Positions 2,831 through 24,946 of a stretch of 26,470 nucleotides of DNA are shown piece after piece. The position numbers were made by a program, and so were the translations under genes. The notes beneath the pieces are model-generated. The model was not told where the DNA came from. It ran no database searches and was given only the letters and a program-made list of their open reading frames with translations. The number at the start of each line of letters is the position of its first letter. Within the stretch, counting starts at the first letter, position 1. Origin of the DNA: a virus (Duplodnaviria; Heunggongvirae; Uroviricota; Caudoviricetes); the IMG/VR virus record IMGVR_UViG_2698536552_000007; one strand, given 5' to 3'.

Positions 2831-3259
2831 ATGGGTTTTCGTAGCGCATCAATTCTTACGTTGATTATTAGTGGGATTATTATCGGGTGCACTGATGCTG
2901 TATCGACAAATTATCATGACCGTACATCATATTACTCCGATAAAGCAATAGAGACACAGTATGTGAGTTCATCTGAACGTACTTCTGATGTTAGTGAGGA
3001 TATCCGTCTGTATGCCCATCAAATCAAGAGCGCCATCGAAAAACAGTTCGGGGATGCGAGTAAGTATTCAGGAAAAGAGTGTACACTGAGAATGCATATG
3101 GCCCCGAATGGCCTTCTACTGGAGGTTAAAAGAGAAAGTGGAGACCTCGATTTATGTCGTGAAGCGATGAATGCGATAAAGAATGCTGATATACCTGCCC
3201 CCCCTTCGCCGGAAGTATATAAAGTATTTCAAAATGGGGTGCTGGATTTTAAACCCTGA
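2831..3259 (+). CDS. lipoprotein with TolA C-terminal (domain III)-like domain
   Basis: SD gtgaggaaaa precedes the ATG. N-terminal signal peptide ends in a lipobox (IIGC). The C-terminal ~85 aa (YAHQIKSAIEKQFGDASKYSGKECTLRMHMAPNGLLLEVK...PPSPEVYKVFQNGVLDFKP) aligns by eye with E. coli TolA domain III (YAGQIKSAIESKFYDASSYAGKTCTLRIKLAPDGMLLDIK...PPSQAVYEVFKNAPLDFKP), including both Cys. Confidence 0.8.
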   Translation: MGFRSASILTLIISGIIIGCTDAVSTNYHDRTSYYSDKAIETQYVSSSERTSDVSEDIRLYAHQIKSAIEKQFGDASKYSGKECTLRMHMAPNGLLLEVKRESGDLDLCREAMNAIKNADIPAPPSPEVYKVFQNGVLDFKP

Positions 3260-3409: not shown

Positions 3410-3805
3410 GTGGGATTAAAGAAAATCGTTATGTTGACTTTTTGGGTCGGTTTTGTTGCGGGATGCACACCTTTACACCCTTCAGATTGCCACAAAACTA
3501 CTGCTACAGGTAGTTGCAGTTCAGGACGCTGGGATGATCAGGATGAATGGGGGGCGCAAGCGCGGGGAATCAGAGCTGCAATTAATGCCAAACTTGATGA
3601 GCCGCATAACTGGAAAGGGAAAAAATGCAGGTTGCATATGGAATTCTCTCAGGATGGCACGGCGTTAAAAATATCTACCAGTAACGGTGATAAAGCCTAT
3701 TGCGAAGCGATAAAGTCCGCAGCTCATAAAGCCAAATTTCCGGCCTTCAACAATCCGGAAGTCTACAGAGATTTTCAGAAATCTGGCTTTGACATGCGAG
3801 GTTAG
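3410..3805 (+). CDS. lipoprotein, divergent paralog with TolA domain III-like C-terminus
   Basis: GTG start with SD gaggag 6 nt upstream. Signal peptide with lipobox (VAGC). C-terminal region keeps the GKxC-L-M...G.L...C...A...FPA...PEVY.DFQ pattern shared with the upstream paralog and with TolA domain III. Confidence 0.7.
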   Translation: MGLKKIVMLTFWVGFVAGCTPLHPSDCHKTTATGSCSSGRWDDQDEWGAQARGIRAAINAKLDEPHNWKGKKCRLHMEFSQDGTALKISTSNGDKAYCEAIKSAAHKAKFPAFNNPEVYRDFQKSGFDMRG

Positions 3806-3952: not shown

Positions 3953-4056
3953 ATATTGCATCGTCTCCAGCATATATATCAATTAAGGCTCTGATTGATG
4001 TGTCTGAAAGCCTACACATAATAACTATGCCATCCGTTCCGTGCGGAGGTGAGGCT

Positions 4057-4272
4057 ATGAAATCCATGGACAAAATTTCAACAGGCATTGCCTACGGCAC
4101 CTCCGCAGGCAGTGCTGGCTACTGGTTTTTACAGTTGCTCGATAGAGTAACTCCGTCACAGTGGGCTGCAATCGGTGTGCTGGGTAGTCTGGTATTTGGC
4201 CTGCTGACGTACCTGACAAACCTTTATTTCAAGATTAAAGAAGATAAGCGCAAGGCTGCGAGAGGTGAATAA
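4057..4272 (+). CDS. S: phage-21-type pinholin (class II holin) with dual-start motif MKSM
   Basis: SD ggaggtgagg precedes the ATG. The protein ([31 protein letters not shown]...[13 protein letters not shown]) closely matches phage 21 S as I recall it, with two TMDs and a charged C-terminus. Stop overlaps the endolysin ATG. Confidence 0.88.
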
Positions 4273-4769
4273 TGCCTCCATCATTACGAAAAGTCGTTGC
4301 TGCTGCTATTGGTGGCGGAGCAATTGCTATAGCATCAGTGTTAATCACTGGCCCAAGTGGTAACGATGGTCTGGAAGGTGTCAGCTACATACCATACAAA
4401 GATATTGTTGGTGTATGGACTGTATGTCACGGGCATACAGGAAAAGACATCATGCTCGGTAAAACGTATACCAAAGCAGAATGCAAAACACTCTTGAATA
4501 AAGACCTTGCCACTGTCGCCAGACAAATTAACCCGTACATCAAAGTCGATATACCGGAAACAACGCGCGGCGCTCTTTACTCGTTCGTTTACAACGTGGG
4601 TGCTGGTAATTTCAGAACATCGACGCTTCTTCGCAAAATAAACCAGGGCGATATCAAAGGCGCATGTGATCAGCTACGTCGCTGGACATATGCTGGCGGT
4701 AAGCAATGGAAAGGTCTCATGACTCGTCGTGAGATTGAGCGTGAAATCTGTTTGTGGGGTCAGCAATGA
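4272..4769 (+). CDS. R: SAR endolysin (phage 21 R-like lysozyme)
   Basis: N-terminal Gly/Ala-rich signal-anchor-release segment ([20 protein letters not shown]) followed by a lysozyme-like domain. Sits directly after the pinholin, as in phage 21. Confidence 0.88.
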
Positions 4770-5230
4770 ACAGAGTAACCGCGATTATCTCCGCTCTGGT
4801 TATCTGCATCATCGTCTGCCTGTCATGGGCTGTTAATCATTACCGTGATAACGCCATTACCTACAAAGCCCAGCGCGACAAAAATGCCAGAGAACTGAAG
4901 CTGGCGAACGCGGCAATTACTGACATGCAGATGCGTCAGCGTGATGTTGCTGCGCTCGATGCAAAATACACGAAGGAGTTAGCTGATGCGAAAGCTGAAA
5001 ATGATGCTCTGCGTGATGATGTTGCCGCTGGTCGTCGTCGGTTGCACATCAAAGCAGTCTGTCAGTCAGTGCGTGAAGCCACCACCGCCTCCGGCGTGGA
5101 TAATGCAGCCTCCCCCCGACTGGCAGACACCGCTGAACGGGATTATTTCACCCTCCGGGAACGACTGGTAATGATGCAGGCCCAACTTGAAGGTGCTCAG
5201 CAATACATAACCGAGCAGTGTTTAAAGTAA
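4766..5230 (+). CDS. Rz: Rz i-spanin
   Basis: ATG overlaps the endolysin stop (ATGA at 4766..4769). N-terminal TMD followed by a coiled-coil-like periplasmic domain; Rz1 is embedded in the +1 frame. Confidence 0.85.
4986..5171 (+). CDS. Rz1: Rz1 o-spanin lipoprotein, embedded within Rz
   Basis: SD aaggag 7 nt upstream of the ATG. Lipoprotein signal with Cys (VVVGC) and a proline-rich mature part ([15 protein letters not shown]), entirely inside Rz in another frame. Confidence 0.75.
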
Positions 5231-5367
5231 AATCTTAACTACAATATGATTCATTTTGATGATTGTTTCATAAGGAACAGTGAAGTAAGATCTAAGAGGA
5301 GTTAAATTTTATACAGTATAATCATAATATTGCAGCAAGGTGGTTATAATTGAAAGAATATTTAGAT

Positions 5368-6825
5368 ATGAATACATCTCATGTAAGAGTTGTTACTCAT
5401 ATGTGTGGGTTCCTGGTTTGGCTCTATAGTCTTTCAATGTTGCCACCAATGGTTGTAGCATTGTTTTATAAAGAAAAAAGCCTGTTCGTTTTCTTTATAA
5501 CTTTCGTTATATTTTTTTGCATTGGTGGCGGAGCGTGGTATACAACTAAGAAATCTGGCATTCAATTACGTACCCGTGATGGGTTTATTATAATTGTAAT
5601 GTTTTGGATTTTGTTTTCTGTTATTAGTGCATTCCCTTTATGGATTGACTCAGAACTTAATTTAACGTTCATTGATGCTCTGTTTGAAGGGGTTTCTGGA
5701 ATAACAACAACAGGAGCAACTGTAATTGATGATGTTAGTTCATTACCTCGGGCATATTTGTACTATCGGTCACAGTTAAATTTTATAGGTGGTTTAGGAG
5801 TTATTGTTCTGGCGGTTGCAGTATTGCCATTATTGGGTATTGGTGGTGCAAAGCTTTATCAGTCAGAAATGCCGGGGCCATTTAAGGATGACAAACTCAC
5901 TCCCCGCCTGGCCGATACGTCACGGACACTGTGGATAACTTATTCTTTATTAGGTATTGCTTGTATTGTCTGTTATAGACTTGCAGGAATGCCTTTGTTT
6001 GATGCTATTTGTCACGGGATTTCCACAGTTTCGCTTGGTGGTTTCTCAACTCATAGCGAGAGTATCGGATATTTTAATAACTATTTGGTTGAGCTGGTGG
6101 CTGGTTCTTTTTCCCTGCTATCGGCTTTCAACTTCACTCTTTGGTATATTGTTATTAGCAGAAAAACGATAAAACCTTTAATCAGAGATATTGAACTTCG
6201 TTTCTTTCTGTTAATAGCCTTAGGGGTGATCATTGTTACCTCTTTCCAGGTCTGGCATATAGGTATGTATGACTTGCATGGAAGTTTTATTCATTCGTTT
6301 TTTCTTGCCAGCTCCATGCTCACTGATAATGGTTTAGCTACGCAGGATTATGCAAACTGGCCCACGCACACGATAGTGTTTTTGCTGTTGTCAAGTTTCT
6401 TTGGGGGATGTATAGGTTCAACCTGTGGTGGAATTAAGTCACTTCGATTTCTTATACTTTTCAAACAAAGCAAACACGAGATAAATCAGCTTTCTCATCC
6501 CAGAGCGTTGTTGAGTGTAAATGTAGGAGGGAAGATAGTTACAGATCGTGTAATGAGGTCTGTATGGAGTTTCTTTTTTCTTTATACTCTCTTCACGGTG
6601 TTTTTTATACTGGTGTTAAATGGTATGGGATATGATTTTCTTACATCATTTGCAACAGTGGCTGCATGTATTAATAATATGGGATTAGGTTTTGGGGCTA
6701 CTGCATCGTCATTCGGAGTGCTTAATGACATTGCAAAATATTTAATGTGCATAGCTATGATTCTTGGTCGCCTTGAAATTTATCCTGTTATTATATTGTT
6801 TTCAGGTTTTTTTTGGCGCTCCTAA
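5368..6825 (+). CDS. trkG: TrkG/TrkH-family K+ uptake membrane protein (Rac-prophage trkG-like)
   Basis: Polytopic membrane protein that aligns by eye with E. coli TrkH (GATVIDDVSSLP...VLAVAVLPLLGIGGAKLYQSEMPGPFKDDK vs TrkH GATTLVGLDSLP...[30 protein letters not shown]). 485 aa from ATG 5368; an alternative TTG start at 5350 has a better SD. AT-rich relative to neighbours. K-12 trkG lies after Rz in Rac. Confidence 0.88.
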   Translation: MNTSHVRVVTHMCGFLVWLYSLSMLPPMVVALFYKEKSLFVFFITFVIFFCIGGGAWYTTKKSGIQLRTRDGFIIIVMFWILFSVISAFPLWIDSELNLTFIDALFEGVSGITTTGATVIDDVSSLPRAYLYYRSQLNFIGGLGVIVLAVAVLPLLGIGGAKLYQSEMPGPFKDDKLTPRLADTSRTLWITYSLLGIACIVCYRLAGMPLFDAICHGISTVSLGGFSTHSESIGYFNNYLVELVAGSFSLLSAFNFTLWYIVISRKTIKPLIRDIELRFFLLIALGVIIVTSFQVWHIGMYDLHGSFIHSFFLASSMLTDNGLATQDYANWPTHTIVFLLLSSFFGGCIGSTCGGIKSLRFLILFKQSKHEINQLSHPRALLSVNVGGKIVTDRVMRSVWSFFFLYTLFTVFFILVLNGMGYDFLTSFATVAACINNMGLGFGATASSFGVLNDIAKYLMCIAMILGRLEIYPVIILFSGFFWRS

Positions 6826-6962
6826 TATATGGCTGATTTATAATTGTGAGTTTAATATTATGTTGACTCACTCATTGATCCAATACCTAACTTTACCAGC
6901 AACACCTCCGCCCCCAGTAGCACTGGCTGCTGGGGTGCGTTTTATTCATAAAGCAAGGCTGT

Positions 6963-7751
6963 ATGAGCGAGAAATTAAAGATAGTCTATCGCCCATTACA
7001 AGAATTGTCACCGTATGCGCACAACGCCAGGACGCACAGTACTGAGCAGGTGGCACAACTGGTAGAAAGTATTAAGCAATTCGGCTGGACTAATCCGGTG
7101 CTGATTGACGAAAAGGGCGAAATTATTGCGGGTCACGGTCGTGTTATGGCGGCTGAAATGCTCAAAATGGATTCTGTTCCGGTCATTGTTCTGTCTGGCC
7201 TGACGGATGAGCAGAAAAAGGCGTACCGCCTGGCAGATAATCGCCTGCCGATGAATGCTGGCTGGGATGAAGATCTGTTGCGGATGGAGCTGTCGGACCT
7301 AATCAATGCTGATTTTGATGTCTCCCTGACAGGCTTCATCCCGGCAGAAATTGATGAACTGTTGACGGATGTTTTGCCCGGTACAGGAAATGAGGAGGAG
7401 CCGTATACGACGAAAATTGATACGCCTGTTTATGAGCCGTCAGGCGGTAAACCGGATATCAGTGAACTGTACGACGATACGAAAACTCAGGAGCTGATCA
7501 GCCGGATACGTTCGGCGTCCCTTGATCCTGATATTGAGAAATTCCTCCTGTGTGCAGCAGAACGTCACACGGTGTTTAATTTCAGCAGAATTGCGGACTA
7601 TTACGCTCATGCCCCCGCTGAAATTCAGTGCCTTTTCGAGGAGTCGGCGCTGGTGATCATTGATTATCAGCAGGCTATTGAAAATGGATTTGTCCGAATG
7701 ACGCAGCGCATGGTGGAGATCATGCATGGCGGGGAGGAGGAATATGCGTGA
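6963..7751 (+). CDS. ParB N-terminal (ParB/Srx-like nuclease) domain protein
   Basis: N-terminus KIVYRPLQELSPYAHNARTHS...NPVLIDEKGEIIAGHGRVMAAEML fits the ParB N-domain pattern, including the GxGR motif. C-terminal ~150 aa has unknown function. Its stop overlaps the start of the next gene. Confidence 0.8.
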   Translation: MSEKLKIVYRPLQELSPYAHNARTHSTEQVAQLVESIKQFGWTNPVLIDEKGEIIAGHGRVMAAEMLKMDSVPVIVLSGLTDEQKKAYRLADNRLPMNAGWDEDLLRMELSDLINADFDVSLTGFIPAEIDELLTDVLPGTGNEEEPYTTKIDTPVYEPSGGKPDISELYDDTKTQELISRIRSASLDPDIEKFLLCAAERHTVFNFSRIADYYAHAPAEIQCLFEESALVIIDYQQAIENGFVRMTQRMVEIMHGGEEEYA

Positions 7752-8676
7752 TGATTTTTGCGCCTTTATTCTGACTCACGGGCGACCGGACAAAGTTCTG
7801 ACTTACCGGACGTTGCGTCGTGCTGGCTATACCGGGAAAATTTTTATCGTTGTTGATGATGAAGATAAGACACGGCATCAGTACATGGCTGAATTTGGTG
7901 AACAGGTGCTGGTATTTTCCAAAGCCGATATTGCTAGTCGTTTTGACGAAGCCGATAATTTTAGTGACCGCCGCTCAATTTTTTACGCCCGTAATGCCTG
8001 TTTCGACCAGGCAAAACTGGTCGGGTGTAAATACTTCATTCAGCTCGATGATGATTATCACGAGTTCCAGTTTCGGGTGGATCGCAACTATGACCAGGCC
8101 TATTTCCCGATAAGGAAACTGGATGAGATCCTTTCTGAAATGCTTGCGTACTACGAATCAATACCTGCTCTTTCCATCGCTATGTCGCAGGGCGGGGATT
8201 TTCTTGGTGACAATGGCGGCCATGCTTCGTGGGTGAAACGCAAGGCAATGAACAGCTTTATCTGTTCGGTTGATCGACCGTTCTCATTCATGGGGCGCAT
8301 TAACGAGGATGTGAATACGTACACGAATCTCGGTCGCTGTGGTGAATTGTTTATGACGATCGGTGCTGTCCAGTTAGGGCAGAAACAGACGCAGAAAAAC
8401 AGCGGCGGAATGACCGAGCTGTATCTGGATTCCGGAACCTACGTTAAAAGTTTTTACTCCGTCATGTATGCGCCGTCGTGCGTAAAAATCTCACTTATGG
8501 GTGCCAGTCATAAACGCATTCACCATCAGGTCACCTGGAACAACGCTGCAGTAAAAATCCTTCACGAAAAATACAGGAAGAAGACACCCTGCATATCAAT
8601 GGGGGTGACAAATGATTCCGTATTCGAAAGTCGAGTCTCTGGCAGCGTGCCGGATGACTGCACAACAAATCGCTGA
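7726..8676 (+). CDS. putative soluble GT-A-fold glycosyltransferase-like protein (function uncertain); alternative start at 7744
   Basis: Beta-strand/acidic motifs typical of GT-A enzymes (FILTHGRPDKV...IFIVVDDEDK and, about 80 aa later, YFIQLDDDY as a DxD-like motif). No TM segments. ATG 7744 overlaps the ParB-like stop (7749..7751). Fold assignment is pattern-based only. Confidence 0.5.
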   Translation: MAGRRNMRDDFCAFILTHGRPDKVLTYRTLRRAGYTGKIFIVVDDEDKTRHQYMAEFGEQVLVFSKADIASRFDEADNFSDRRSIFYARNACFDQAKLVGCKYFIQLDDDYHEFQFRVDRNYDQAYFPIRKLDEILSEMLAYYESIPALSIAMSQGGDFLGDNGGHASWVKRKAMNSFICSVDRPFSFMGRINEDVNTYTNLGRCGELFMTIGAVQLGQKQTQKNSGGMTELYLDSGTYVKSFYSVMYAPSCVKISLMGASHKRIHHQVTWNNAAVKILHEKYRKKTPCISMGVTNDSVFESRVSGSVPDDCTTNR

Positions 8677-8863
8677 CGTTCTGGATGTTGATCTGAACCG
8701 ACTGAAAGAAAATCGGGAAGCAATGACAGATTTTTATGCGGCCATCCGTAAGGGCAGAGCGAAAGGTGAAGCCGAGTTACGAGCGGCATTGTTTAAGCTT
8801 GCCAGAAAAGGGGATGCCTTTGCTCTGCGCGAACTACTCAGGGTGGATAAAAATCAGGACTAA
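8612..8863 (+). CDS. small putative DNA-binding (HTH-like) protein upstream of terminase small subunit
   Basis: ORF with SD ggggg 6 nt upstream of the ATG; alternative ATG at 8654. Contains an HTH-like stretch (TAQQIADVLDVDLNRL). Overlaps the 3' end of the upstream gene in another frame. Confidence 0.45.
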   Translation: MIPYSKVESLAACRMTAQQIADVLDVDLNRLKENREAMTDFYAAIRKGRAKGEAELRAALFKLARKGDAFALRELLRVDKNQD

Positions 8864-8866
8864 CTG

Positions 8867-9961
8867 ATGAGCAGACCGGACTGGGGGGCGTTGCAGCAGG
8901 AGTATATTGCTGAATACACCCGCTCCGGTATATCTCCGGTGGCATGGTGTGAAGCAAGGGGACTGAATTACGCAACAGCCCGTCGTTACATCAAAAAAAC
9001 TCCGAAAAATGCGCAGACAGAAATGTGCAAAACTGCGCAAAAAAGTGCGCAGAAAAAATCTGCGCAGACTGCACAAAAGCGGAACGAAAAATCTCAGGAA
9101 AAAAAGCCAGTATTCGATGCGGGCCTGAATGAGGGCGACGCGGAGGAATTTTCGTTCTGTCCCGATGAATTCGGCATTTCTGACCAGCAGGCTAAGTTTG
9201 CGATGCTTGTTGCTCAGGGTAAAAAGCCGACAGAGGCGTACCGACTAGCCGGTTATGAGGGGCAAGGTGCGACAGCTAACAGCAACGCCAGTCGTATGCT
9301 TAGAAATGCCAGGGTTTTTCGCGCTATCAGCTACTTCCGCAATCAGTACCAGAAACGCTATACCGCAGACCTGGATTTACTAGTGAGTCAGTTGATGGCT
9401 ATTGTCCTGGCCGACCCCAATCAGCTTGCACAATTTCGCCGTGTTAACTGCCGTTATTGCTGGGGCGAGAATCATCTCTACCAGTGGCGCGATATAGCAG
9501 AATTCGACAAGGCAGCGGCGCAGGCTTCCAGAGATGGCAAACCCGAACCGGAATATGGAGGCCTCGGCTTTGTTGATAACGCCATACCCAATCCGGACTG
9601 CCCGAAGTGCTGCGGTGAGGGAACGGGACAGCTTTATATGGCTGATACCACTCTGCTTGATGGGGATGCGCGGCAATTATATGCAGGGGCAAAATTCGGA
9701 AAATTCGGCGTTGAGATCCTGCTGGAGGATAAGGCTGCCGCCCGGCGTGAATTGTTGCGTTTGTTTTCTGCTGGCGGGGCTTTATGTGCAGATAAGCGGC
9801 TACGGGAACTGGAAATTGAACGGCGCAGAATGGAAAACCAGAAGCTGCGCAAAGAGATCGAAACGGTGGAAGATAATGAACATCCCCAGCCTGTGGCGAT
9901 CAATATTAATGTGGTTGATGCCAGAGTAAGGAGTGATGAAGATGATCTCTCCGACGCTTAA
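8867..9961 (+). CDS. terminase small subunit (Terminase_2-like core with N-terminal HTH-like region and low-complexity AQK linker)
   Basis: Motif AYRLAGYEGQGATANSNASRMLRNARV matches the small-terminase signature as I recall it. Sits immediately upstream of the large terminase gene. Confidence 0.78.
   Translation: MSRPDWGALQQEYIAEYTRSGISPVAWCEARGLNYATARRYIKKTPKNAQTEMCKTAQKSAQKKSAQTAQKRNEKSQEKKPVFDAGLNEGDAEEFSFCPDEFGISDQQAKFAMLVAQGKKPTEAYRLAGYEGQGATANSNASRMLRNARVFRAISYFRNQYQKRYTADLDLLVSQLMAIVLADPNQLAQFRRVNCRYCWGENHLYQWRDIAEFDKAAAQASRDGKPEPEYGGLGFVDNAIPNPDCPKCCGEGTGQLYMADTTLLDGDARQLYAGAKFGKFGVEILLEDKAAARRELLRLFSAGGALCADKRLRELEIERRRMENQKLRKEIETVEDNEHPQPVAININVVDARVRSDEDDLSDA
9010..9075 (+). repeat. 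array of palindromic hexamer TGCGCA (4 exact, 2 one-off variants) with A-rich spacers inside the terminase small subunit gene
   Basis: TGCGCA at 9010, 9034, 9046, 9061; TGTGCA at 9024; TGCACA at 9070. Spacing is 9-15 bp. Encodes the low-complexity AQK linker. Confidence 0.4.
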
Positions 9962-11264
9962 TGTGCCTCAGGCGCGANNNNNNNNNNNNNNNNNNNNNNN
10001 NNNNNNNNNNNNNNNNNNNNNNNNNNNNNNNNNNNNNNNNNNNNNNNNNNNNNNNNNNNNNNNNNNNNNNNNNNNNNNNNNNNNNNNNNNNNNNNNNNNN
10101 NNNNNNNNNNNNNNNNNNNNNNNNNNNNNNNNNNNNNNNNNNNNNNNNNNNNNNNNNNNNNNNNNNNNNNNNNNNNNNNNNNNNNNNNNNNNNNNNNNNN
10201 NNNNNNNNNNNNNNNNNNNNNNNNNNNNNNNNNNNNNNNNNNNNCGCCAGTATCGGGGAACCACTATCTGCAGATCGATGGAGAAGCCACAAACGATCGT
10301 CGGTTTCAAAATTGGTAATGCGTTGGTGGATGAACTGGACATTTTGCCGAAGGAAAAAGCCAGAACGGCGTGGCGCAAGATAATTGCACGTATGCGTTAT
10401 AAGATTGATGGACTTCGCAACGGTATTGACGTTACAACCACGCCGGAAGGATTCAAATTTGTCTACGAGCAGTTTGTTAAAGCCGTGCGTGAAAAAACAG
10501 AGCTGGCCTCACTGTATGGTCTGGTGCAGGCATCTACTTTCGATAATGAAAAGAACCTGCCAGCAGATTACATTCCTTCGCTTCTTGAATCATACCCTCC
10601 AGAGCTGATTAAAGCCTATCTTCGAGGACAGTTTACTAACCTGACAAGTGGTACTGTTTACCATCAGTTTGACCGGAAACTGAATAATTGCGAAGAAGTG
10701 GAGCAGCCAGGGGAGCCGATTTATATTGGGATGGATTTTAACGTTGGAAAGATGGCGGGAATCGTCCATGTGCTGCGTTTGGGGCTTCCATGTGCGGTAA
10801 CTGAAATCATCAATGCCTACGATACGCCGGATATGATCCGCATCATTAAAGAACGCTTCTGGCTGTATGATGGGAATGATTACCGGAAAGTGAGGGAAAT
10901 TTATATTTATCCAGATGCTTCCGGGGATTCCAGAAAATCAAGTAACGCAAGTACGACGGATATAGCCCAGCTTAAGCAGGCTGGTTTTAACGTTGTGGTG
11001 AACAGCTCGAACCCGCCAGTAAAAGATCGCGTTAACTCAATGAATGCAATGTTCTGCAATGCCAATGGTGAGCGTCGCTATAAAGTTAATGTGAAGCGTT
11101 GCCCGTTATATGCCGAATCTCTGGAGCAACAGGTCTGGGATGAGAAGGGGGAGCCTGATAAAAAATCTGGCAATGATCACCCGAATGATGCCGGAGGTTA
11201 TTTCATCGTTAAGCAATTCCCTATTGTCAAACCGACCGGAAGAGTCACATCACTTCGGATTTAA
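9942..11264 (+). CDS. terminase large subunit (N-terminal region masked by N block 9978..10244)
   Basis: About 440-aa ORF following the small subunit and preceding the portal gene; SD aaggag 9 nt upstream of ATG 9942. The ATPase motifs are presumably inside the masked part; the call rests mainly on synteny and size. Confidence 0.75.
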   Translation: MISPTLNVPQARXXXXXXXXXXXXXXXXXXXXXXXXXXXXXXXXXXXXXXXXXXXXXXXXXXXXXXXXXXXXXXXXXXXXXXXXXXXXXXXXXXXXXXXXXRQYRGTTICRSMEKPQTIVGFKIGNALVDELDILPKEKARTAWRKIIARMRYKIDGLRNGIDVTTTPEGFKFVYEQFVKAVREKTELASLYGLVQASTFDNEKNLPADYIPSLLESYPPELIKAYLRGQFTNLTSGTVYHQFDRKLNNCEEVEQPGEPIYIGMDFNVGKMAGIVHVLRLGLPCAVTEIINAYDTPDMIRIIKERFWLYDGNDYRKVREIYIYPDASGDSRKSSNASTTDIAQLKQAGFNVVVNSSNPPVKDRVNSMNAMFCNANGERRYKVNVKRCPLYAESLEQQVWDEKGEPDKKSGNDHPNDAGGYFIVKQFPIVKPTGRVTSLRI

Positions 11265-19619: not shown

Positions 19620-22600
19620 ATGGCAGAGCAAACCTCGCGTCTCGCAATAATTATTGATAGCACTGGAGCGAAAAATAATGCTGACAATCTGACCTCCTCA
19701 TTAGTCAAAATGACGCAGGCTGGGGAAACTGCTGCAANNNNNNNNNNNNNNNNNNNNNNNNNNNNNNNNNNNNNNNNNNNNNNNNNNNNNNNNNNNNNNN
19801 NNNNNNNNNNNNNNNNNNNNNNNNNNNNNNNNNNNNNNNNNNNNNNNNNNNNNNNNNNNNNNNNNNNNNNNNNNNNNNNNNNNNNNNNNNNNNNNNNNNN
19901 NNNNNNNNNNNNNNNNNNNNNNNNNNNNNNNNNNNNNNNNNNNNNNNNNNNNNNNNNNNNNNNNNNNNNNNNNNNNNNNNNNNNNNNCCGGAAAACTTGC
20001 TGCCGCCCAGCAGGAAGCGCAGGCTCAGGCCTTTCAAAGAATGCTGGACAAGATCGACCCTCTGGCTGCGGCGCTAAGAAATCTTGAACAACAGCATGAT
20101 GAACTTAATGCTGCGTTTGCATCCGGGAAAATAAATGGTTCTCAGTTTGAGAATTATAGCCGAAAAATACAGGAAACACGGCGAGAGCTTACCGGAGAGG
20201 CTCAGGCAGAGCGAGAAGCAGCAAAAGCGCATGATGAACAGGTTGTTGCTTTGCAACGTCTGATTGCTCAACTTGATCCTGTCGGAACTGCTTTTAATCG
20301 TCTGGTAGAACAACAGAAACAGCTCAATGAAGCAAAAGCTAAGGGGATGCTTTCTCCTGAAATGTATGAGGAGCTTTCTGGAAAACTTCGTGCTATGCGG
20401 AGTGAGCTTGAGGTTACTCAATCACAATTAAGCAAAACCGGAATGTCGGCAAAACAAACGGCTTTTGCTATGCGCATGTTGCCTGTACAAATGACGGATA
20501 TTGTTGTTGGGTTGTCCACTGGTCAGTCGCCATTTATGGTGTTAATGCAGCAGGGCGGCCAGCTAAAAGATATGTTCGGTGGGATTGGCCCGGCGATCAA
20601 AGGTGTAGGTTCTTATGTGCTGGGATTAATTAATCCTTTTACCCTGGCCGCAGCAGCCGTTGGGGTCTTAGGACTGGCTTACTATAAAGGCTCTCAGGAG
20701 CAGGACGAATTTAATAAATCTCTTATTCTTACCGGAAATCAGTTGGGGACAACCAGCGGGCAATTGGGCGATATAGCTCAACGTGCCGGGAATGCGGCTG
20801 ATTCGACAACTGGTGCTGCGGCGGCAGTATTAAATCAGCTTGTGCGTTCGGGAAAGGTAGCGAGCAGTTCGCTGGAGCAAGTGACGACAGCGATAGTAAA
20901 AACGAGCGAAGTAACAGGAATATCAACCGAACAACTGGTTAATGACTTCAATGAAATTGCAAAGGATCCTGTCAGTGCCATATCAAAACTTAATGATCAG
21001 TACCATTTTCTGACACTTGCGACTTATAACCAGATTAAGGCGCTACAGGATGAAGGGAACCAGCAGGAGGCCGCCCGCATTGCGACAGAAGAATACTCAT
21101 CCTCAATGATCCAGCGCACCAACCAGATTAAAGAAAATCTTGGTTATCTTGAGACTGCATGGAAAGCTGTCGCAGACTCCGCAAAATGGGCATGGGATTC
21201 CATGCTGGATATTGGCCGTGAGGCCTCCCTTGATCAAAAAATCTCAGATGTTCTCCGTCAAATTGATGAAATAGAAAAAAATACCCGACCCGGAGTTTTC
21301 GGGTTAGGTGGCATTGGAGATGGCGGAGCTCAAAATAAAAGGCTGGCACGATTAAAGCAGCAATTGGGCGTACTTCAAGCAGAAAAAATTGCTCAGGACG
21401 TACTAAATTCATCAATAAACGATTACAACAAGCGACAACAGGAAGGAATTGAACTCAGACAGAGAGCAGATGCCTTTTCAAAACAATATCAGACCCGGGA
21501 GCAGCAGAGAGCTAGTGAACTTGCAAAACTGGAAAAGCTAAAGAATCAGTATTCAAAGGAAGAATATAATAATCTTATCGCTCAAATAAATGAGCGTTAT
21601 AAAGATCCAAAGCAACCAAAGGCGAAAGGTTATTCTGATGATGCAGCCCAACGAATGATTGATCATCTGAATCAACAGAATGCGTTACTAAGTTCACAAG
21701 CTGAGTTGACCGTTAAATTAAGTTCCTCTGAACAGGAACTGGTTAAGTGGCGTCAGCGGATTGCCGACCTAGAGTCACGACCATCATCGAAATTAACCCA
21801 GGATCAGAAATCGCTTCTCTTACACCGGGAAGAAATAACCACGTTGATGGAGAAAAATGTTGCGATTGAAAAAAATAACAGGCTAATCAAGGAATCCGCC
21901 GAAATAACAGCATGGCGTGATTCATTGCAGGCTTCGATTGATAATCGTCAGCAGGGGTATGATATTCAGATTGCTGGTTATGGGGTTGGCGATAAAAATC
22001 AGCAACGCCAGCAGGAATTACTGCGGATTGAACATGGATATAACAATCAGCGTCTGCAACTTGAACGTGACTATGCAGATAAATCCCGTGGAATGTCAGA
22101 TCATGTTTTTCAAGAGAAAATGCAGGCTCTGAATGATGCTCTGGAACGGGAAAAAGAAATTGTCAGACAGAAAAACGAGCAGCTCGATATTCAGGCAGGA
22201 GACTGGGTTAGTGGTGCCTCCCAGGGATTCAATAACTGGCTGGATGACACTAAGGATATCAGTGAGCAGATAAAATCAACCACGACTCAGATGTTTGATG
22301 GGATGACCGATGCGCTGGGTGATTTTGTCACGACAGGCAAGGCAAATTTTCGTTCTTTCGCTACTTCCGTGATTTCGGATCTTAGTCGAATAGCATTAAA
22401 GGCTTCAATTACTGGGATTTTCGACAGCATTAGTAACAGTTCTTCTGGGGGGATTTTAGGAACTATCGGGAGTGCTATTAGTAAATTTATTCCGAATGCA
22501 AAGGGCGGTGTTTATGAGTCTCCGTCATTGAGCACGTATTCGAACGGTATTTATGATTCCCCGCAATTTTTTGCTTTTGCAAAAGGGGCTGGTGTTTTTG

Positions 22601-23191: not shown

Positions 23192-23889
23192 TGCAGGACA
23201 TACAACAGGAAACGCTGAATGAATGCATTCGTGCGGAGCAGTCGGCCAGCGTGGTGCTCTGGGAAATCGACCTGACCGAGGTAGGCGGGGATCGCTACTT
23301 TTTCTGCAATGAGCAGAACGAGAAAGGAGAGTCTGTCACCTGGCAGAGTCGGCAGTATCAGGCCTATCCCATTCAGGGGAGTGGATTTGAGATGAACGGC
23401 AAAGGTGCCAGTGCAAGGCCAACGCTGAAAGTCTCTAATCTGCACGGCATGGTCACCGGGATGGCGGAAGACCTGCAGAGTCTGGTCGGCGGAACGGTGG
23501 TCAGGCGTAAGGTTTACGCCCGTTTTCTGGATGCGGTGAACTTCGTCAACGGAAACAGTGACGCCGATCCGGAGCAGGAGGTGATCAGCCGCTGGCGTAT
23601 TGAGCAGTGCAGCGAACTGAGCGCGGTCAGTGCCTCCTTTGTACTGTCCACGCCGACGGAAACGGACGGCGCTGTTTTTCCGGGGCGCATCATGCTTGCT
23701 AATACCTGCACCTGGACCTATCGCGGTGATGAGTGCGGTTATCACGGTCCGGCTGTCGCGGATGAATATGACCAGCCAACGTCCGATATCACGAAGGATA
23801 AATGCAGCAAATGCCTGAGNNNNNNNNNNNNNNNNNNNNNNNNNNNNNNNNNNNNNNNNNNNNNNNNNNNNNNNNNNNNNNNNNNNNNN
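23191..23889 (+). CDS. L: minor tail protein L (3' end inside N block 23820..24105; end estimated)
   Basis: Visible 209 aa are almost identical to lambda gpL as I recall it ([12 protein letters not shown]...TCTWTYRGDECGY...DKCSKCL). End estimated from lambda L length. Confidence 0.85.
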
Positions 23890-24093
23890 NNNNNNNNNNN
23901 NNNNNNNNNNNNNNNNNNNNNNNNNNNNNNNNNNNNNNNNNNNNNNNNNNNNNNNNNNNNNNNNNNNNNNNNNNNNNNNNNNNNNNNNNNNNNNNNNNNN
24001 NNNNNNNNNNNNNNNNNNNNNNNNNNNNNNNNNNNNNNNNNNNNNNNNNNNNNNNNNNNNNNNNNNNNNNNNNNNNNNNNNNNNNNNNNNNNN

Positions 24094-24946
24094 NNNNNNN
24101 NNNNNAGACAGAATCAGCGATTCTGGCGCACGCCCGGCGATGTGCGCCAGCGGAGTCGTGCGGCTTCGTGGTGAGAACGCCGGAGGGGGAAAGATATTTT
24201 CCCTGCGTGAATATCTCCGGTGAGCCGGAGGATTATTTCCGGATGTCGCCGGAGGACTGGCTGCAGGCAGAAATGCAGGGTGAGATTGTGGCGCTGGTCC
24301 ACAGCCACCCCGGTGGTCTGCCCTGGCTGAGTGAGGCCGACCGGCGGCTGCAGGTGCAGAGTGATTTGCCGTGGTGGCTGGTCTGCCGGGGGGCGATTCA
24401 TAAGTTCCGCTGTGTGCCGCATCTCACCGGGCGGCGCTTTGAGCACGGGGTGACGGACTGTTACACGCTGTTCCGGGACGCTTACCATCTGGCGGGNNNN
24501 NNNNNNNNNNNNNNNNNNNNNNNNNNNNNNNNNNNNNNNNNNNNNNNNNNNNNNNNNNNNNNNNNNNNNNNNNNNNNNNNNNNNNNNNNNNNNNNNNNNN
24601 NATTGAGATGCCAGATTTTCATCGTGAGGACGACTGGTGGCGTAACGGCCAGAATCTCTATCTTGATAATCTGGAGGCCACAGGGCTGTATCAGGTGCCG
24701 TTGTCAGCGGCGCAGCCGGGCGATGTGCTGCTGTGCTGTTTTGGTTCATCGGTGCCGAATCATGCCGCCATTTACTGTGGTGACGGCGAGCTGCTGCACC
24801 ATATTCCTGAACAACTGAGCAAACGAGAGAGGTACACCGACAAATGGCAGCGACGCACACACTCCCTCTGGCGTCACCGGGCATGGCACGCATCTGCCTT
24901 TACGGGGATTTGCAGCGATTTGGCCGCCGCATCGACCTTCGTGTGA
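24094..24946 (+). CDS. K: tail assembly protein K (start inside N block; also interrupted by N block 24498..24601)
   Basis: TESAILAHARRCAPAESCGFVV...HSHPGG (JAB/MPN-like) before the second N block and IEMPDFHREDDWW...CCFGSSVPNHAAIYCGDGELLHH (NlpC/P60-like) after it. The frame changes across the mask. 3' end overlaps the I start. Confidence 0.75.

Follow-up and report, generated by a model that had tools for sequence, protein, structure and literature searches.

Two translationally coupled genes of a Rac-like lambdoid E. coli prophage, one for a ParB-like adaptor and one for a GT-A glycosyltransferase of the TAGT family, directly precede its terminase genes; their products probably attach sugars to the viral DNA without the hydroxymethyl-base step on which such modification usually depends. 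We give roughly even credence to the reading that adaptor and transferase make up a two-component, post-replicative DNA glycosylation module. That DNA is the acceptor of the transferase we infer from its family and its genomic context. The features of the window (the whole stretch of 26,470 nucleotides that was analysed) on which the argument draws are the following:

6963..7751, + strand: adaptor gene (262 aa), the full-length form of K-12 ynaK (ORF; PF02195; phrog_620 at 1.7e-90)
6963..7367, + strand: ParB/Srx-type N-terminal (NTP-binding fold) domain of the adaptor, aa 1-135
7131..7142, + strand: GHGR, aa 57-60 of the adaptor (alignment A2: G57 invariant, R60 at least 90% conserved)
7398..7442, + strand: conserved extended linker motif PYTTKIDTPVYEPSG, aa 146-160 of the adaptor (alignments A2 and A4)
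7398..7697, + strand: transferase-partner module, aa 146-245 of the adaptor (linker motif plus small helical domain)
7731..7741, + strand: Shine-Dalgarno-like GGGGAGGAGGA for the transferase start, within the end of the adaptor gene (sequence)
7744..7751, + strand: overlap of adaptor stop and transferase start, ATGCGTGA, 8 nt (sequence; translational coupling)
7744..8676, + strand: soluble GT-A glycosyltransferase of the TAGT family, 310 aa (PF20691, phrog_842, AF2 fold, Foldseek)
7783..7785, + strand: codon of R14 in 'THGRP' (invariant; the R of the R...DDD...ED set)
7855..7866, + strand: 'DDED', aa 38-41, after the second beta-strand (strand E32-38 in the model)
8047..8055, + strand: DDD, aa 102-104, DxD metal/diphosphate-binding motif
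8302..8310, + strand: N187-E188-D189 of 'INEDVNTY', the ED motif, candidate catalytic base (N187 and D189 invariant)
8605..8676, + strand: disordered C-terminal tail of the transferase, aa 288-310, overlapping the next gene (pLDDT <50; non-conserved, specific to the E. coli version)
8654..8863, + strand: small ORF resembling part of a small terminase subunit (phrog_309 at 8.3e-23; RefSeq CDS)
8867..9961, + strand: small terminase subunit (PF03592, phrog_51), a conserved downstream neighbour of the pair
9933..11264, + strand: large terminase subunit (ORF list, RefSeq annotation)

The two ORFs and the overlap between the stop of one and the ATG of the other were found as the original prediction had described them, the adaptor stop (TGA, 7749-7751) falling within ATGCGTGA. 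RefSeq, too, begins the transferase at the ATG at 7744, as does the homologue alignment; an alternative start at ATG 7726 was rejected because the N-termini of homologues, the RefSeq annotation and the place of the Shine-Dalgarno sequence favour 7744. The pair had been placed between lysis and packaging genes. This holds on the packaging side, which is directly adjacent, but on the other side the cargo gene trkG (5350-6825) stands between it and the lysis genes. A terminator-like hairpin is located at 6912-6935, upstream of the adaptor gene. Downstream, the small ORF has 69 aa from its RefSeq start and 83 aa from 8612, and a masked run of N (9978-10244) interrupts the large terminase gene in the window. 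The pairing of adaptor and transferase is far beyond chance: in 52 of 54 loci from very different viruses, the gene immediately preceding the transferase, in the same orientation, is that of the partner, and in 51 it overlaps the transferase start by 4-20 nt. The overlap is 8 nt in 14 of these loci and 11 nt in another 30 (together 44/54). In most related loci the adaptor and transferase genes are followed by one or more small ORFs and then by the large terminase gene. The diverse loci were gathered by an alignment-based scan, a phage collection and contig look-ups; the related-locus scan gave near-identical E. coli prophages only. The pair is present in 889 of 5426 complete E. coli genomes, and also in phages of Lactobacillus, Nocardia, Porphyromonas and Vibrio and in a haloarchaeal virus. 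Pairing and coupling are kept at 27-47% identity in the Lactobacillus, Nocardia and Porphyromonas phages and in halovirus HHTV-2. The transferase shares 40-47% identity among viruses of E. coli, Lactobacillus, Nocardia and Haloarcula, which points to an acceptor that all these hosts have in common, for instance DNA.

The constant partner of the transferase is the C-terminal module of the adaptor (ca. 100 aa, aa 146-245), rather than its ParB domain. This module is previously undescribed and new here; no Pfam family covers it, and no recognisable DNA-binding fold was found in it, a point against DNA glycosylation. Its linker has the consensus PYTxKIxxPxYEP, in which Y148, P155 and Y157 are invariant (alignments A2 and A4), and its helical domain the consensus FLxxAAxRHTxF..IA.YYAHA...SALVIID..AIE.GF. 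In the AF2 model of the adaptor (pLDDT 83.8, built from alignment A4), the linker is predicted to be disordered on its own (pLDDT <50 for aa 137-153), and PYTTKIDTPVYEPSG is likely to be the docking peptide for the transferase. The module is found in two forms, fused to ParB-N beside terminase genes or alone (ca. 130 aa) in replication modules, both directly upstream of the transferase and usually with the 8- or 11-nt overlap. Loci with the stand-alone partner and a transferase, lacking ParB-N, are found in many viruses, and there the neighbours are genes for DNA polymerase A, DnaB, SSB, ERF, helicase, primase and N6/N4 methyltransferase; one such locus is on a T4-like contig carrying Gp23 and others are in Vibrio phages of ca. 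190 kb. The terS and terL genes downstream of the ParB-fused form belong to different terminase families. We count these terminase or replication-gene surroundings, as a DNA context, in favour of DNA glycosylation. Among 150 representatives there were no ParB-GT or partner-GT fusions. Long forms of the transferase are fused to a P-loop kinase, a SAM methyltransferase (O-methyltransferase-type domain), a sulfotransferase or a second TAGT, and these fusion partners mirror the tailoring enzymes of known DNA-glycan pathways, which also counts for DNA glycosylation.

The first protein had been recognised as ParB-like, and it does match PF02195 (ParB_N) at 29.3 bits (cutoff 26.3), with the ParB/Srx N-terminal NTP-binding fold present. 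Its GHGR occupies what we take to be the position of ParB Box II (GERR), and a DN motif (D92, N93) is conserved alongside G57 and R60 in alignment A2. The closest relatives of this domain are the N-terminal domains of phage ParB-DNA-methyltransferase fusions; with phage proteins that carry a DNA methyltransferase annotation, it shares 40-54% identity over the ParB-N domain. This likeness counts for DNA glycosylation as well. In an identical genome, PGAP mis-annotated the adaptor gene as a truncated pseudogene. Truncated counterparts had been mentioned for the Rac prophage of K-12; a ParB-N stub (ynaK) is indeed left there, but the transferase is absent. Neither protein contains a membrane-type hydrophobic segment (maximum 19-residue Kyte-Doolittle values of 1.08 for the adaptor and 1.25 for the transferase), so the second was rightly taken to be soluble.

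The transferase is a GT-A enzyme that belongs to the TAGT family and keeps its R/DDD/ED motifs intact. It matches PF20691 (TAGT) at 3.7e-34 (118.9 bits, gathering score 27.5) over model positions 4-205 of 205, and phrog_842 at 7.5e-104; RefSeq names it 'GREB1-related protein', and PF20691 is carried by all 120 transferase homologues among the matches listed. Most homologues have 284-295 aa and match ca. 90% of the query. The GT-A fold suspected from the letters was recovered by structure prediction (AF2 model, pLDDT 86.4, pTM 0.83), the best 50 Foldseek matches in the PDB all being GT-A enzymes, and viral TAGT proteins in BFVD also match the model (TM 0.78/0.86). The acidic motifs that had suggested this fold, 'VVDDED' and 'QLDDDY', are real and conserved: across 34 homologues with identities down to 40%, D41 and D102 are invariant and D103 and D104 conserved to at least 90%. 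R14 and N187-E188-D189 are likewise either invariant or conserved to at least 90% in these sequences. By analogy with other GT-A folds, D41 is the probable nucleotide-contacting acidic residue. The TAGT family was reportedly defined by Iyer et al. in 2013 (NAR). It takes in the T2/T6 beta-glucosyl-HMC-alpha-glucosyltransferase, the base-J glucosyltransferase (JGT) and GREB1 (PMC13216743; 10.1101/2023.12.21.572611; PMC7968844), and TAGT and GT-A phage enzymes and JGT have been described as DNA glycosyltransferases (PMC13216743; 10.1101/2023.12.21.572611). R...DDD...ED is the motif set of phage GT-A DNA glycosyltransferases and JGT (bioRxiv 10.1101/2023.12.21.572611).

Among known systems, the T2/T6 alpha-glucosyltransferase shares PF20691 and the GT-A fold with our transferase, and PHROG annotation transfers its name. 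The T-even-type enzyme of Klebsiella phage PKO111 matches the transferase model (Foldseek E 6e-9, TM 0.58/0.64), while the nearest T4-like homologue, that of Aeromonas phage 65, is ca. 22% identical and lacks the partner module, its N-terminal extension being something else. However, the T2/T6 enzyme adds a second glucose onto glucosyl-5hmC, the product of a dedicated hmC pathway; the present system has neither such a pathway nor a first glycosyltransferase. The R...DDD...ED set is shared with the 5mYOX/TET-associated phage GT-A glycosyltransferases and JGT (Pyle et al., Cell Rep 2024; bioRxiv 10.1101/2023.12.21.572611); they act post-replicatively, and ParB and terminase genes have been noted among their neighbours (10.1101/2023.12.21.572611). 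They use 5hmC or 5hmU from an adjacent methyltransferase/dioxygenase or a ThyS homologue, whereas the clade studied here is without such genes and has an obligate small partner module instead. For the adaptor, the best mechanistic analogue is ParB176, in which a disordered linker joins an N-terminal NTP-binding fold to a C-terminal domain and an HTH is lacking; it is encoded beside a DNA-modifying enzyme, 5mYOX176, and needed for the action of that enzyme on dsDNA (O'Toole et al., PNAS 2026, PMC13229309). Compared with this published description, the adaptor has the same layout of ParB-N, linker and C-terminal domain, no DNA-binding domain, and an adjacent enzyme gene. The enzyme of ParB176 is, however, an Fe/2OG dioxygenase (PMC13229309) and that of the adaptor a glycosyltransferase, and the C-terminal module of the adaptor also exists without ParB-N. 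The phage ParB-N/DNA methyltransferase fusions mentioned above (phrog_498; PADLOC MTase_II; ParB-CTPase-N6N4-MTase, PMC12704722) are, like the adaptor pair, enriched in prophages. They carry a SAM methyltransferase effector in the same polypeptide, whereas here the effector is a separate, coupled glycosyltransferase, presumably bound via the C-terminal module. M.EcoGII, a non-specific prophage methyltransferase considered as a ParB-bearing positional analogue, was ruled out, having no additional domains (PMC5778455).

The original prediction of a DNA glycosylation module gains partial support; the element that stays with the transferase is the C-terminal module and not the ParB domain it had stressed. 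In the mechanism that we propose, the linker motif and helical module would dock onto the transferase to give a roughly 1:1 complex, which the ParB-N domain would load or hold on duplex DNA, acting either as an NTP-gated clamp or by making the bases of dsDNA accessible. The base-exposing mode is suggested because it has been reported for a ParB that activates a phage thymine dioxygenase, and the finding that a ParB-like protein is required for such a phage DNA dioxygenase on dsDNA supports an adaptor-dependent model (PMC13229309). The transferase would then move a sugar from a UDP-sugar to replicated phage DNA just before packaging. At the next infection, the glycosylated genome would resist host restriction and other nucleic-acid-targeting defences.

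To our knowledge, every characterised DNA-glycosylation pathway begins with a hydroxymethylated pyrimidine, and we know of no precedent for the enzymatic glycosylation of an unmodified DNA base. As acceptor, the known TAGT and JGT enzymes require a hydroxymethyl group or a sugar. The annotation of the complete E. coli prophage contains no TET/JBP, thymidylate-synthase-like, dCMP/dUMP hydroxymethylase or cytosine-C5 methyltransferase gene, and the same absence is found in that of the 31.8-kb phage c5. No hydroxymethyl-pyrimidine-forming family appears among the 25 neighbour Pfam families listed out of 141, and 13 distinct metagenomic loci with precomputed Pfam hits show no TET/JBP or other source of 5-hydroxymethyl-pyrimidines. 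This absence of precursor enzymes counts against DNA as the acceptor, and also against known TAGT/JGT chemistry. Such chemistry, acting on 5-hydroxymethyl-pyrimidines or their sugars as in the T2/T6 beta-alpha-GT, the 5mYOX-linked GTs and JGT, with the precursor coming from another phage gene, oxidative damage or a co-infecting element, is therefore improbable, even if membership of PF20691 speaks for it and the Gp23-bearing T4-like contig and the ca. 190-kb Vibrio phages could encode hydroxymethylase pathways. For DNA glycosylation by the adaptor-transferase pair, since no 5hmC/5hmU source is encoded, the acceptor would be a canonical base, a backbone position or a host-made modification. Tentatively, we propose as one possible form a hydroxymethyl-independent DNA glycosylation in which the adaptor module, with or without the ParB NTPase domain, recruits the TAGT enzyme to duplex DNA and a canonical base or backbone position is glycosylated directly, the sugar being methylated, sulfated, phosphorylated or extended in some lineages.

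The missing hydroxymethyl-base source in the prophage, phage c5 and the listed neighbour families speaks for protein glycosylation, which we nevertheless regard as unlikely. The target could be the partner itself (e.g., the invariant Tyr/Thr of its linker consensus), a protein of the packaging machinery or the virion, or else a conserved protein of the host, and the adaptor would only position or regulate the enzyme. Y148 and Y157 are invariant hydroxyl residues in a disordered, exposed adaptor motif, the nearest solved folds include GalNAc-Ts and SunS/ThuS (protein/peptide glycosyltransferases), and the ParB-fused form adjoins terminase and portal genes. GREB1, a large eukaryotic (animal) protein whose relationship to the transferase is at the level of the common TAGT domain only, has been reported to O-GlcNAcylate a transcription factor, ER-alpha (PMC7968844), which also tells against DNA as the acceptor. 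But the stand-alone form is found in replication modules and not beside structural genes, the different families of the downstream terminases leave no common packaging-protein target evident, the ParB-N domain is shared with DNA methyltransferase fusions, and three of the four characterised TAGT family members act on DNA. Very improbable in our estimate is a prophage defence or exclusion cargo (already named as an alternative in the original prediction) that shields the lysogen, for instance through modification of a cell-surface polymer or of the DNA of incoming phages. The pair does adjoin the trkG cargo gene, at a place where morons are found in lambdoid phages; the structural neighbours of the transferase include TarP, a wall-teichoic-acid GT encoded by a prophage; and Pyle et al. 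suggested that prophage GTs might hypermodify invading DNA (bioRxiv 10.1101/2023.12.21.572611). Against it, the transferase has no match in PADLOC-DB 2.0 and the sole match of the adaptor is to the ParB-like N-terminus of a methyltransferase model (MTase_II); the transferase is contiguous with the late/packaging genes in the same orientation, is found in large phages of lytic type and in phage c5, whose annotation has neither an integrase nor a CI-type repressor, and is conserved across hosts with unrelated envelopes, an archaeon among them, and both proteins are soluble. Finally, the GenBank label 'chromosome (plasmid) partitioning protein' implies a ParB partition function with an unrelated glycosyltransferase next to it, for which the ParB_N match and database labels are the only points. 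The adaptor shares with ParABS ParB the N-terminal fold, a Box II-like GxxR and the DN motif, but it reaches 38 bits with TIGR00180 (cutoff 58), has neither HTH nor dimerisation domain, is accompanied by no parA in 37.8 kb of annotated prophage and by no evidence for parS, and its gene is always coupled to the transferase, while the partner module works without ParB-N in many viruses. The partition reading is effectively refuted by the missing defining domains.

Sugar modification of phage DNA is a central weapon in the contest between phages and their hosts, and it has yielded tools such as the T4 beta-GT. The 'solitary' TAGT enzymes, in 288 of 753 GT-encoding phage genomes (PMC13216743), have gone unexplained, as have the ca. 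65% of GT contigs that lack a precursor pathway (Pyle et al., 10.1101/2023.12.21.572611), and ParB-like proteins have recently been shown to be able to switch on DNA-modifying enzymes (PMC13229309). The locus described here represents this unexplained solitary-TAGT class in an inducible E. coli prophage, and with the partner module and the coupled two-gene unit now defined, what solitary TAGTs modify becomes testable. If the acceptor were a protein, the pair would be a widespread, packaging-linked viral protein glycosylation system. If it were an unmodified base, this would be new DNA chemistry, relevant to how phages evade restriction, to artefacts in the sequencing of E. coli phage DNA and to the enzymatic labelling of DNA. 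A hydroxymethyl-independent route, if true, would amount to a new kind of DNA modification, carried by prophages in about one-sixth of the E. coli sequenced and by viruses whose hosts span haloarchaea and at least four bacterial phyla.

The reading frames of the original prediction were recovered at the same coordinates, in the late region of a lambdoid E. coli prophage resembling Rac:

about 4000-5230, lysis genes
5350-6825, + strand, trkG, a cargo gene
6963-7751, + strand, 262-aa ORF (ParB-like adaptor)
7731-7741, + strand, Shine-Dalgarno sequence GGGGAGGAGGA
7744-8676, + strand, 310-aa ORF (transferase)
7749-7751, + strand, adaptor stop codon TGA, inside ATGCGTGA

The predicted coupling was also correct, the transferase ORF beginning 8 nt ahead of the end of the adaptor ORF (overlap ATGCGTGA). 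No membrane-type hydrophobic segment appeared in the hydrophobicity of either protein, as expected from the soluble second protein proposed. The transferase is followed by a small terminase-like ORF and then by terS, terL, portal and head genes. Thus, the pair lies upstream of the packaging genes, as had been claimed, but trkG separates it from the lysis cassette. Seven runs of masked N, 105-286 nt long (683-932, 1282-1531, 2124-2388, 9978-10244, 19738-19987, 23820-24105 and 24497-24601), are present; one interrupts the large terminase gene and none touches the pair.

Several other features of the region were found. The K+ transporter gene trkG is cargo that interrupts the late operon after the Rz/Rz1 lysis genes and before the adaptor gene. 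Between it and the adaptor there is a strong terminator-like hairpin (6912-6935, + strand; 10-bp stem, seven G-C pairs, T-rich tail), probably the terminator of the trkG moron; late transcription would need Q antitermination to read past it into the pair and the terminase genes. The small ORF overlapping the 3' end of the transferase gene (8612/8654-8863, + strand) matches the middle of the small-terminase family phrog_309 (8.3e-23) and directly precedes the 364-aa terS; it may be a DNA-binding piece split off TerS. Upstream of the lysis genes, annotation transferred from 14100-14906 of L001 (a genome 100% identical to the window) places a partial tolA-like pseudogene (2999-3259, + strand) and an intact gene (3431-3805, + strand) whose product is annotated “TolA C-terminal domain-containing protein”. 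A TolA-C domain encoded by the phage could serve as a decoy for filamentous phages or for colicins that depend on TolA.

The transferase is a member of an already known family, PF20691, “TET-associated glycosyltransferase” (TAGT; 118.9 bits, threshold 27.5). It also matches phrog_842 (7.5e-104) and is named “GREB1-related protein” in RefSeq; its family comprises 1323 clusters at 50% identity (E at or below 1e-3). No solved structure was detectable by sequence search. The AlphaFold2 model (pLDDT 86.4, pTM 0.83) matched, among solved structures, only GT-A enzymes, and distantly (E about 1e-5, TM 0.35-0.45), whereas viral TAGT models matched closely (E 3.6e-28, TM 0.78/0.86) and that of a T-even-type beta-glucosyl-HMC-alpha-glucosyltransferase at E 6e-9. 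The T2/T6 enzyme itself belongs to PF20691 (PMC13216743). Profile and structure prediction therefore agree with the predicted GT-A fold, and both motifs picked out by eye are real: D41, in VVDDED, is invariant, and QLDDDY represents the DxD motif. Among 34 homologues, down to 40% identity, R14, D41, D102(-D103-D104), R166/K167 and N187/D189 are fully or almost fully conserved, as is a C-terminal cluster (K235, R258, H260, H261, W265). R...DDD...ED is the motif set of phage GT-A DNA glycosyltransferases and of the base-J glucosyltransferase (bioRxiv 10.1101/2023.12.21.572611).

In the adaptor, the ParB-N domain is real as predicted, but the part conserved with TAGT is the module at aa 146-245. 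In 35 adaptor sequences, down to 32% identity, this module holds 17 invariant positions versus three in the ParB domain. It consists of an extended PYTxKIxxPxYEP motif, disordered in the model (pLDDT <50, aa 137-153), followed by a confidently modeled helical domain, FLxxAAxRHTxF..IA.YYAHA...SALVIID..AIE.GF. A profile of the module found 6128 proteins, the best matches being mostly stand-alone (126-145 aa) and devoid of any ParB domain. Beyond its own family, the adaptor is closest to the N-terminal domains of phage proteins that carry the annotation DNA methyltransferase or DNA modification methylase (40-54% identity), a link also seen with phrog_498 (6e-51) and the PADLOC MTase_II model (1.5e-38). 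Identity as a partition ParB was rejected: TIGR00180 fell below threshold, domain and profile searches found no HTH or dimerisation domain, and no parA is annotated in the prophage. A survey of the ParB-CTPase fold described phage fusions to methyltransferases and DUFs and did not mention glycosyltransferases (PMC12704722). For a phage thymine dioxygenase to act on dsDNA, a ParB-like protein is required that consists of an NBD, a linker and a CTD and lacks a DNA-binding domain (PMC13229309).

The pair is present in 889 of 5426 complete E. coli genomes (coverage of 80% or more). In the phage collection, transferase homologues (27-47% identity) were found in phages of Lactobacillus gasseri, L. 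delbrueckii and Porphyromonas, Nocardia phage NTR1, halovirus HHTV-2 and Vibrio phages of about 190 kb. In phi jlb1, c5, NTR1, the Porphyromonas phage and HHTV-2, a ParB-like gene lies immediately 5' of the transferase gene and overlaps its start. A scripted survey of 54 loci (several near-duplicates, roughly 35 independent lineages) gave the following partner positions:

51/54, directly upstream and overlapping (8 nt x14, 11 nt x30, 14 nt x3, 17 nt x2, 4 nt x1, 20 nt x1)
1/54, directly upstream without overlap (Vibrio pv27, 9-nt gap per annotated CDS)
1/54, at a contig edge, position not assessable
1/54, partner at a distance of 3.2 kb from a fused enzyme

The partner thus lies directly upstream of the transferase in 52 of the 54 loci. 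Stand-alone partners have the TAGT gene immediately 3' in all six contigs inspected and in Vibrio phage pv27, mostly with an 11-nt overlap. Since stand-alone and fused partners both adjoin TAGT, the conserved unit is partner module plus TAGT, and ParB-N is an optional N-terminal addition.

No gene family other than the pair was common to all the loci compared. Loci with ParB-fused partners keep a recurring order (partner, enzyme, small ORF(s), large terminase) even though the terminases come from different families, and in phage c5 the pair forms the first two genes past cos. Stand-alone partners and their TAGT sit among genes for DNA polymerase A, DnaB, SSB, ERF, helicase, primase and N6/N4-methyltransferases. 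Long forms of the enzyme carry an additional TAGT, class-I SAM methyltransferase, sulfotransferase or P-loop kinase domain, with the ParB-like partner still upstream and the terminase downstream where the contig reaches that far; these domains indicate that the transferred sugar could be tailored or extended. Three fused relatives, all with a ParB-like partner upstream (P0290, L162 3418-5190; P0248, L160 6001-7755; P0270, L158 1879-3270), include a carbohydrate-type sulfotransferase (PF03567), a class-I SAM methyltransferase and an N-terminal P-loop kinase-like domain, implying products in which the sugar would bear a sulfate, methyl or phosphate group. In L158, a radical-SAM gene lies immediately 5' of the ParB-like gene. 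In a 96-kb viral contig (L163 4105-6387), two TAGT genes flank a stand-alone partner right after a family-A DNA polymerase gene, which suggests sequential glycosylation tied to replication. Another phage contig with a stand-alone partner and TAGT (L164 833-4609) carries nicotinate phosphoribosyltransferase and isochorismatase-family (NAD-salvage-type) genes just upstream, together with an F420-ligase-like gene; they may be counter-measures to NAD-depleting defences.

The K-12 counterparts, supposed to be truncated, turned out differently for the two genes. In MG1655 Rac the order is trkG, ynaK, ydaY; ynaK (87 aa) is an N-terminal stub of the ParB domain, while the transferase has no counterpart. 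In intact prophages ydaY comes after the tail tube gene, so the packaging and head genes were lost from Rac by deletion, together with the transferase and the partner module. At L001 18064-18321 (window 6963-7220), RefSeq/PGAP calls the intact 262-aa gene a C-terminally truncated ynaK pseudogene, likely because the K-12 remnant serves as the reference protein. The error is systematic and conceals the full-length adaptor across many E. coli genomes.

The analysis establishes to which fold and family each protein belongs, that the catalytic motifs are intact, that the transferase is obligately coupled to the partner module, that the neighbourhoods are those of DNA metabolism and packaging, that ParB-N is akin to methyltransferase fusions and, in the loci examined, that a precursor pathway is absent. 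We give an even chance to the pair being a DNA glycosyltransferase that depends on its adaptor and modifies replicated phage DNA ahead of packaging. Partner and enzyme would form a complex recruited to DNA, the putative acceptor, with a UDP-sugar as the presumed donor and protection from restriction as the possible benefit. The transferase keeps 40-47% identity between viruses of E. coli, Lactobacillus, Nocardia and Haloarcula, which argues for an acceptor shared by all these hosts; DNA would be a better candidate for it than an envelope polymer or a protein specific to one host. Glycosylation of a protein, including the invariant Tyr/Thr motif of the partner itself, appears unlikely. The DNA-modification or anti-defence role originally proposed is supported in part: it gains from the TAGT family, motifs, coupling and DNA contexts, but no source of the acceptor precursors of known TAGT enzymes was found.

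This chemistry is the main weakness of the DNA glycosyltransferase reading, as known relatives require a hydroxymethyl group or a sugar acceptor and none is made here. TET/JBP, thymidylate-synthase-like and C5-methyltransferase genes were found neither in the prophage annotation, nor in the complete 31.8-kb phage c5, nor at 13 distinct metagenomic loci (precomputed Pfam hits), nor in the 25 listed of 141 neighbour Pfam families, a rare singleton being possible among 32 unlisted. Phage GT-A enzymes adjoining methyltransferase/5mYOX genes glycosylate 5hmC; such a neighbour is missing from about 65% of GT contigs, and ParB and terminase are among the annotations co-occurring with phage GTs (bioRxiv 10.1101/2023.12.21.572611). 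“Solitary” TAGT homologues of unknown function occur in 288 of 753 GT-encoding phage genomes (PMC13216743). Canonical hydroxymethyl-pyrimidine chemistry, which would need an externally supplied precursor, is quite improbable; a defence or exclusion cargo is more improbable still, and the domain content of the adaptor leaves a partition function a negligible chance. Our literature search found no published experiments on the partner-TAGT pair or on ynaK function.

No characterised system matches this one, in which an undescribed partner module is obligate, ParB-N is optional, a precursor pathway is absent from the loci examined and the pair is coupled to genes of terminase or replication. It is possible, if somewhat doubtful, that unmodified DNA is glycosylated directly; if true, this would be a new DNA modification.
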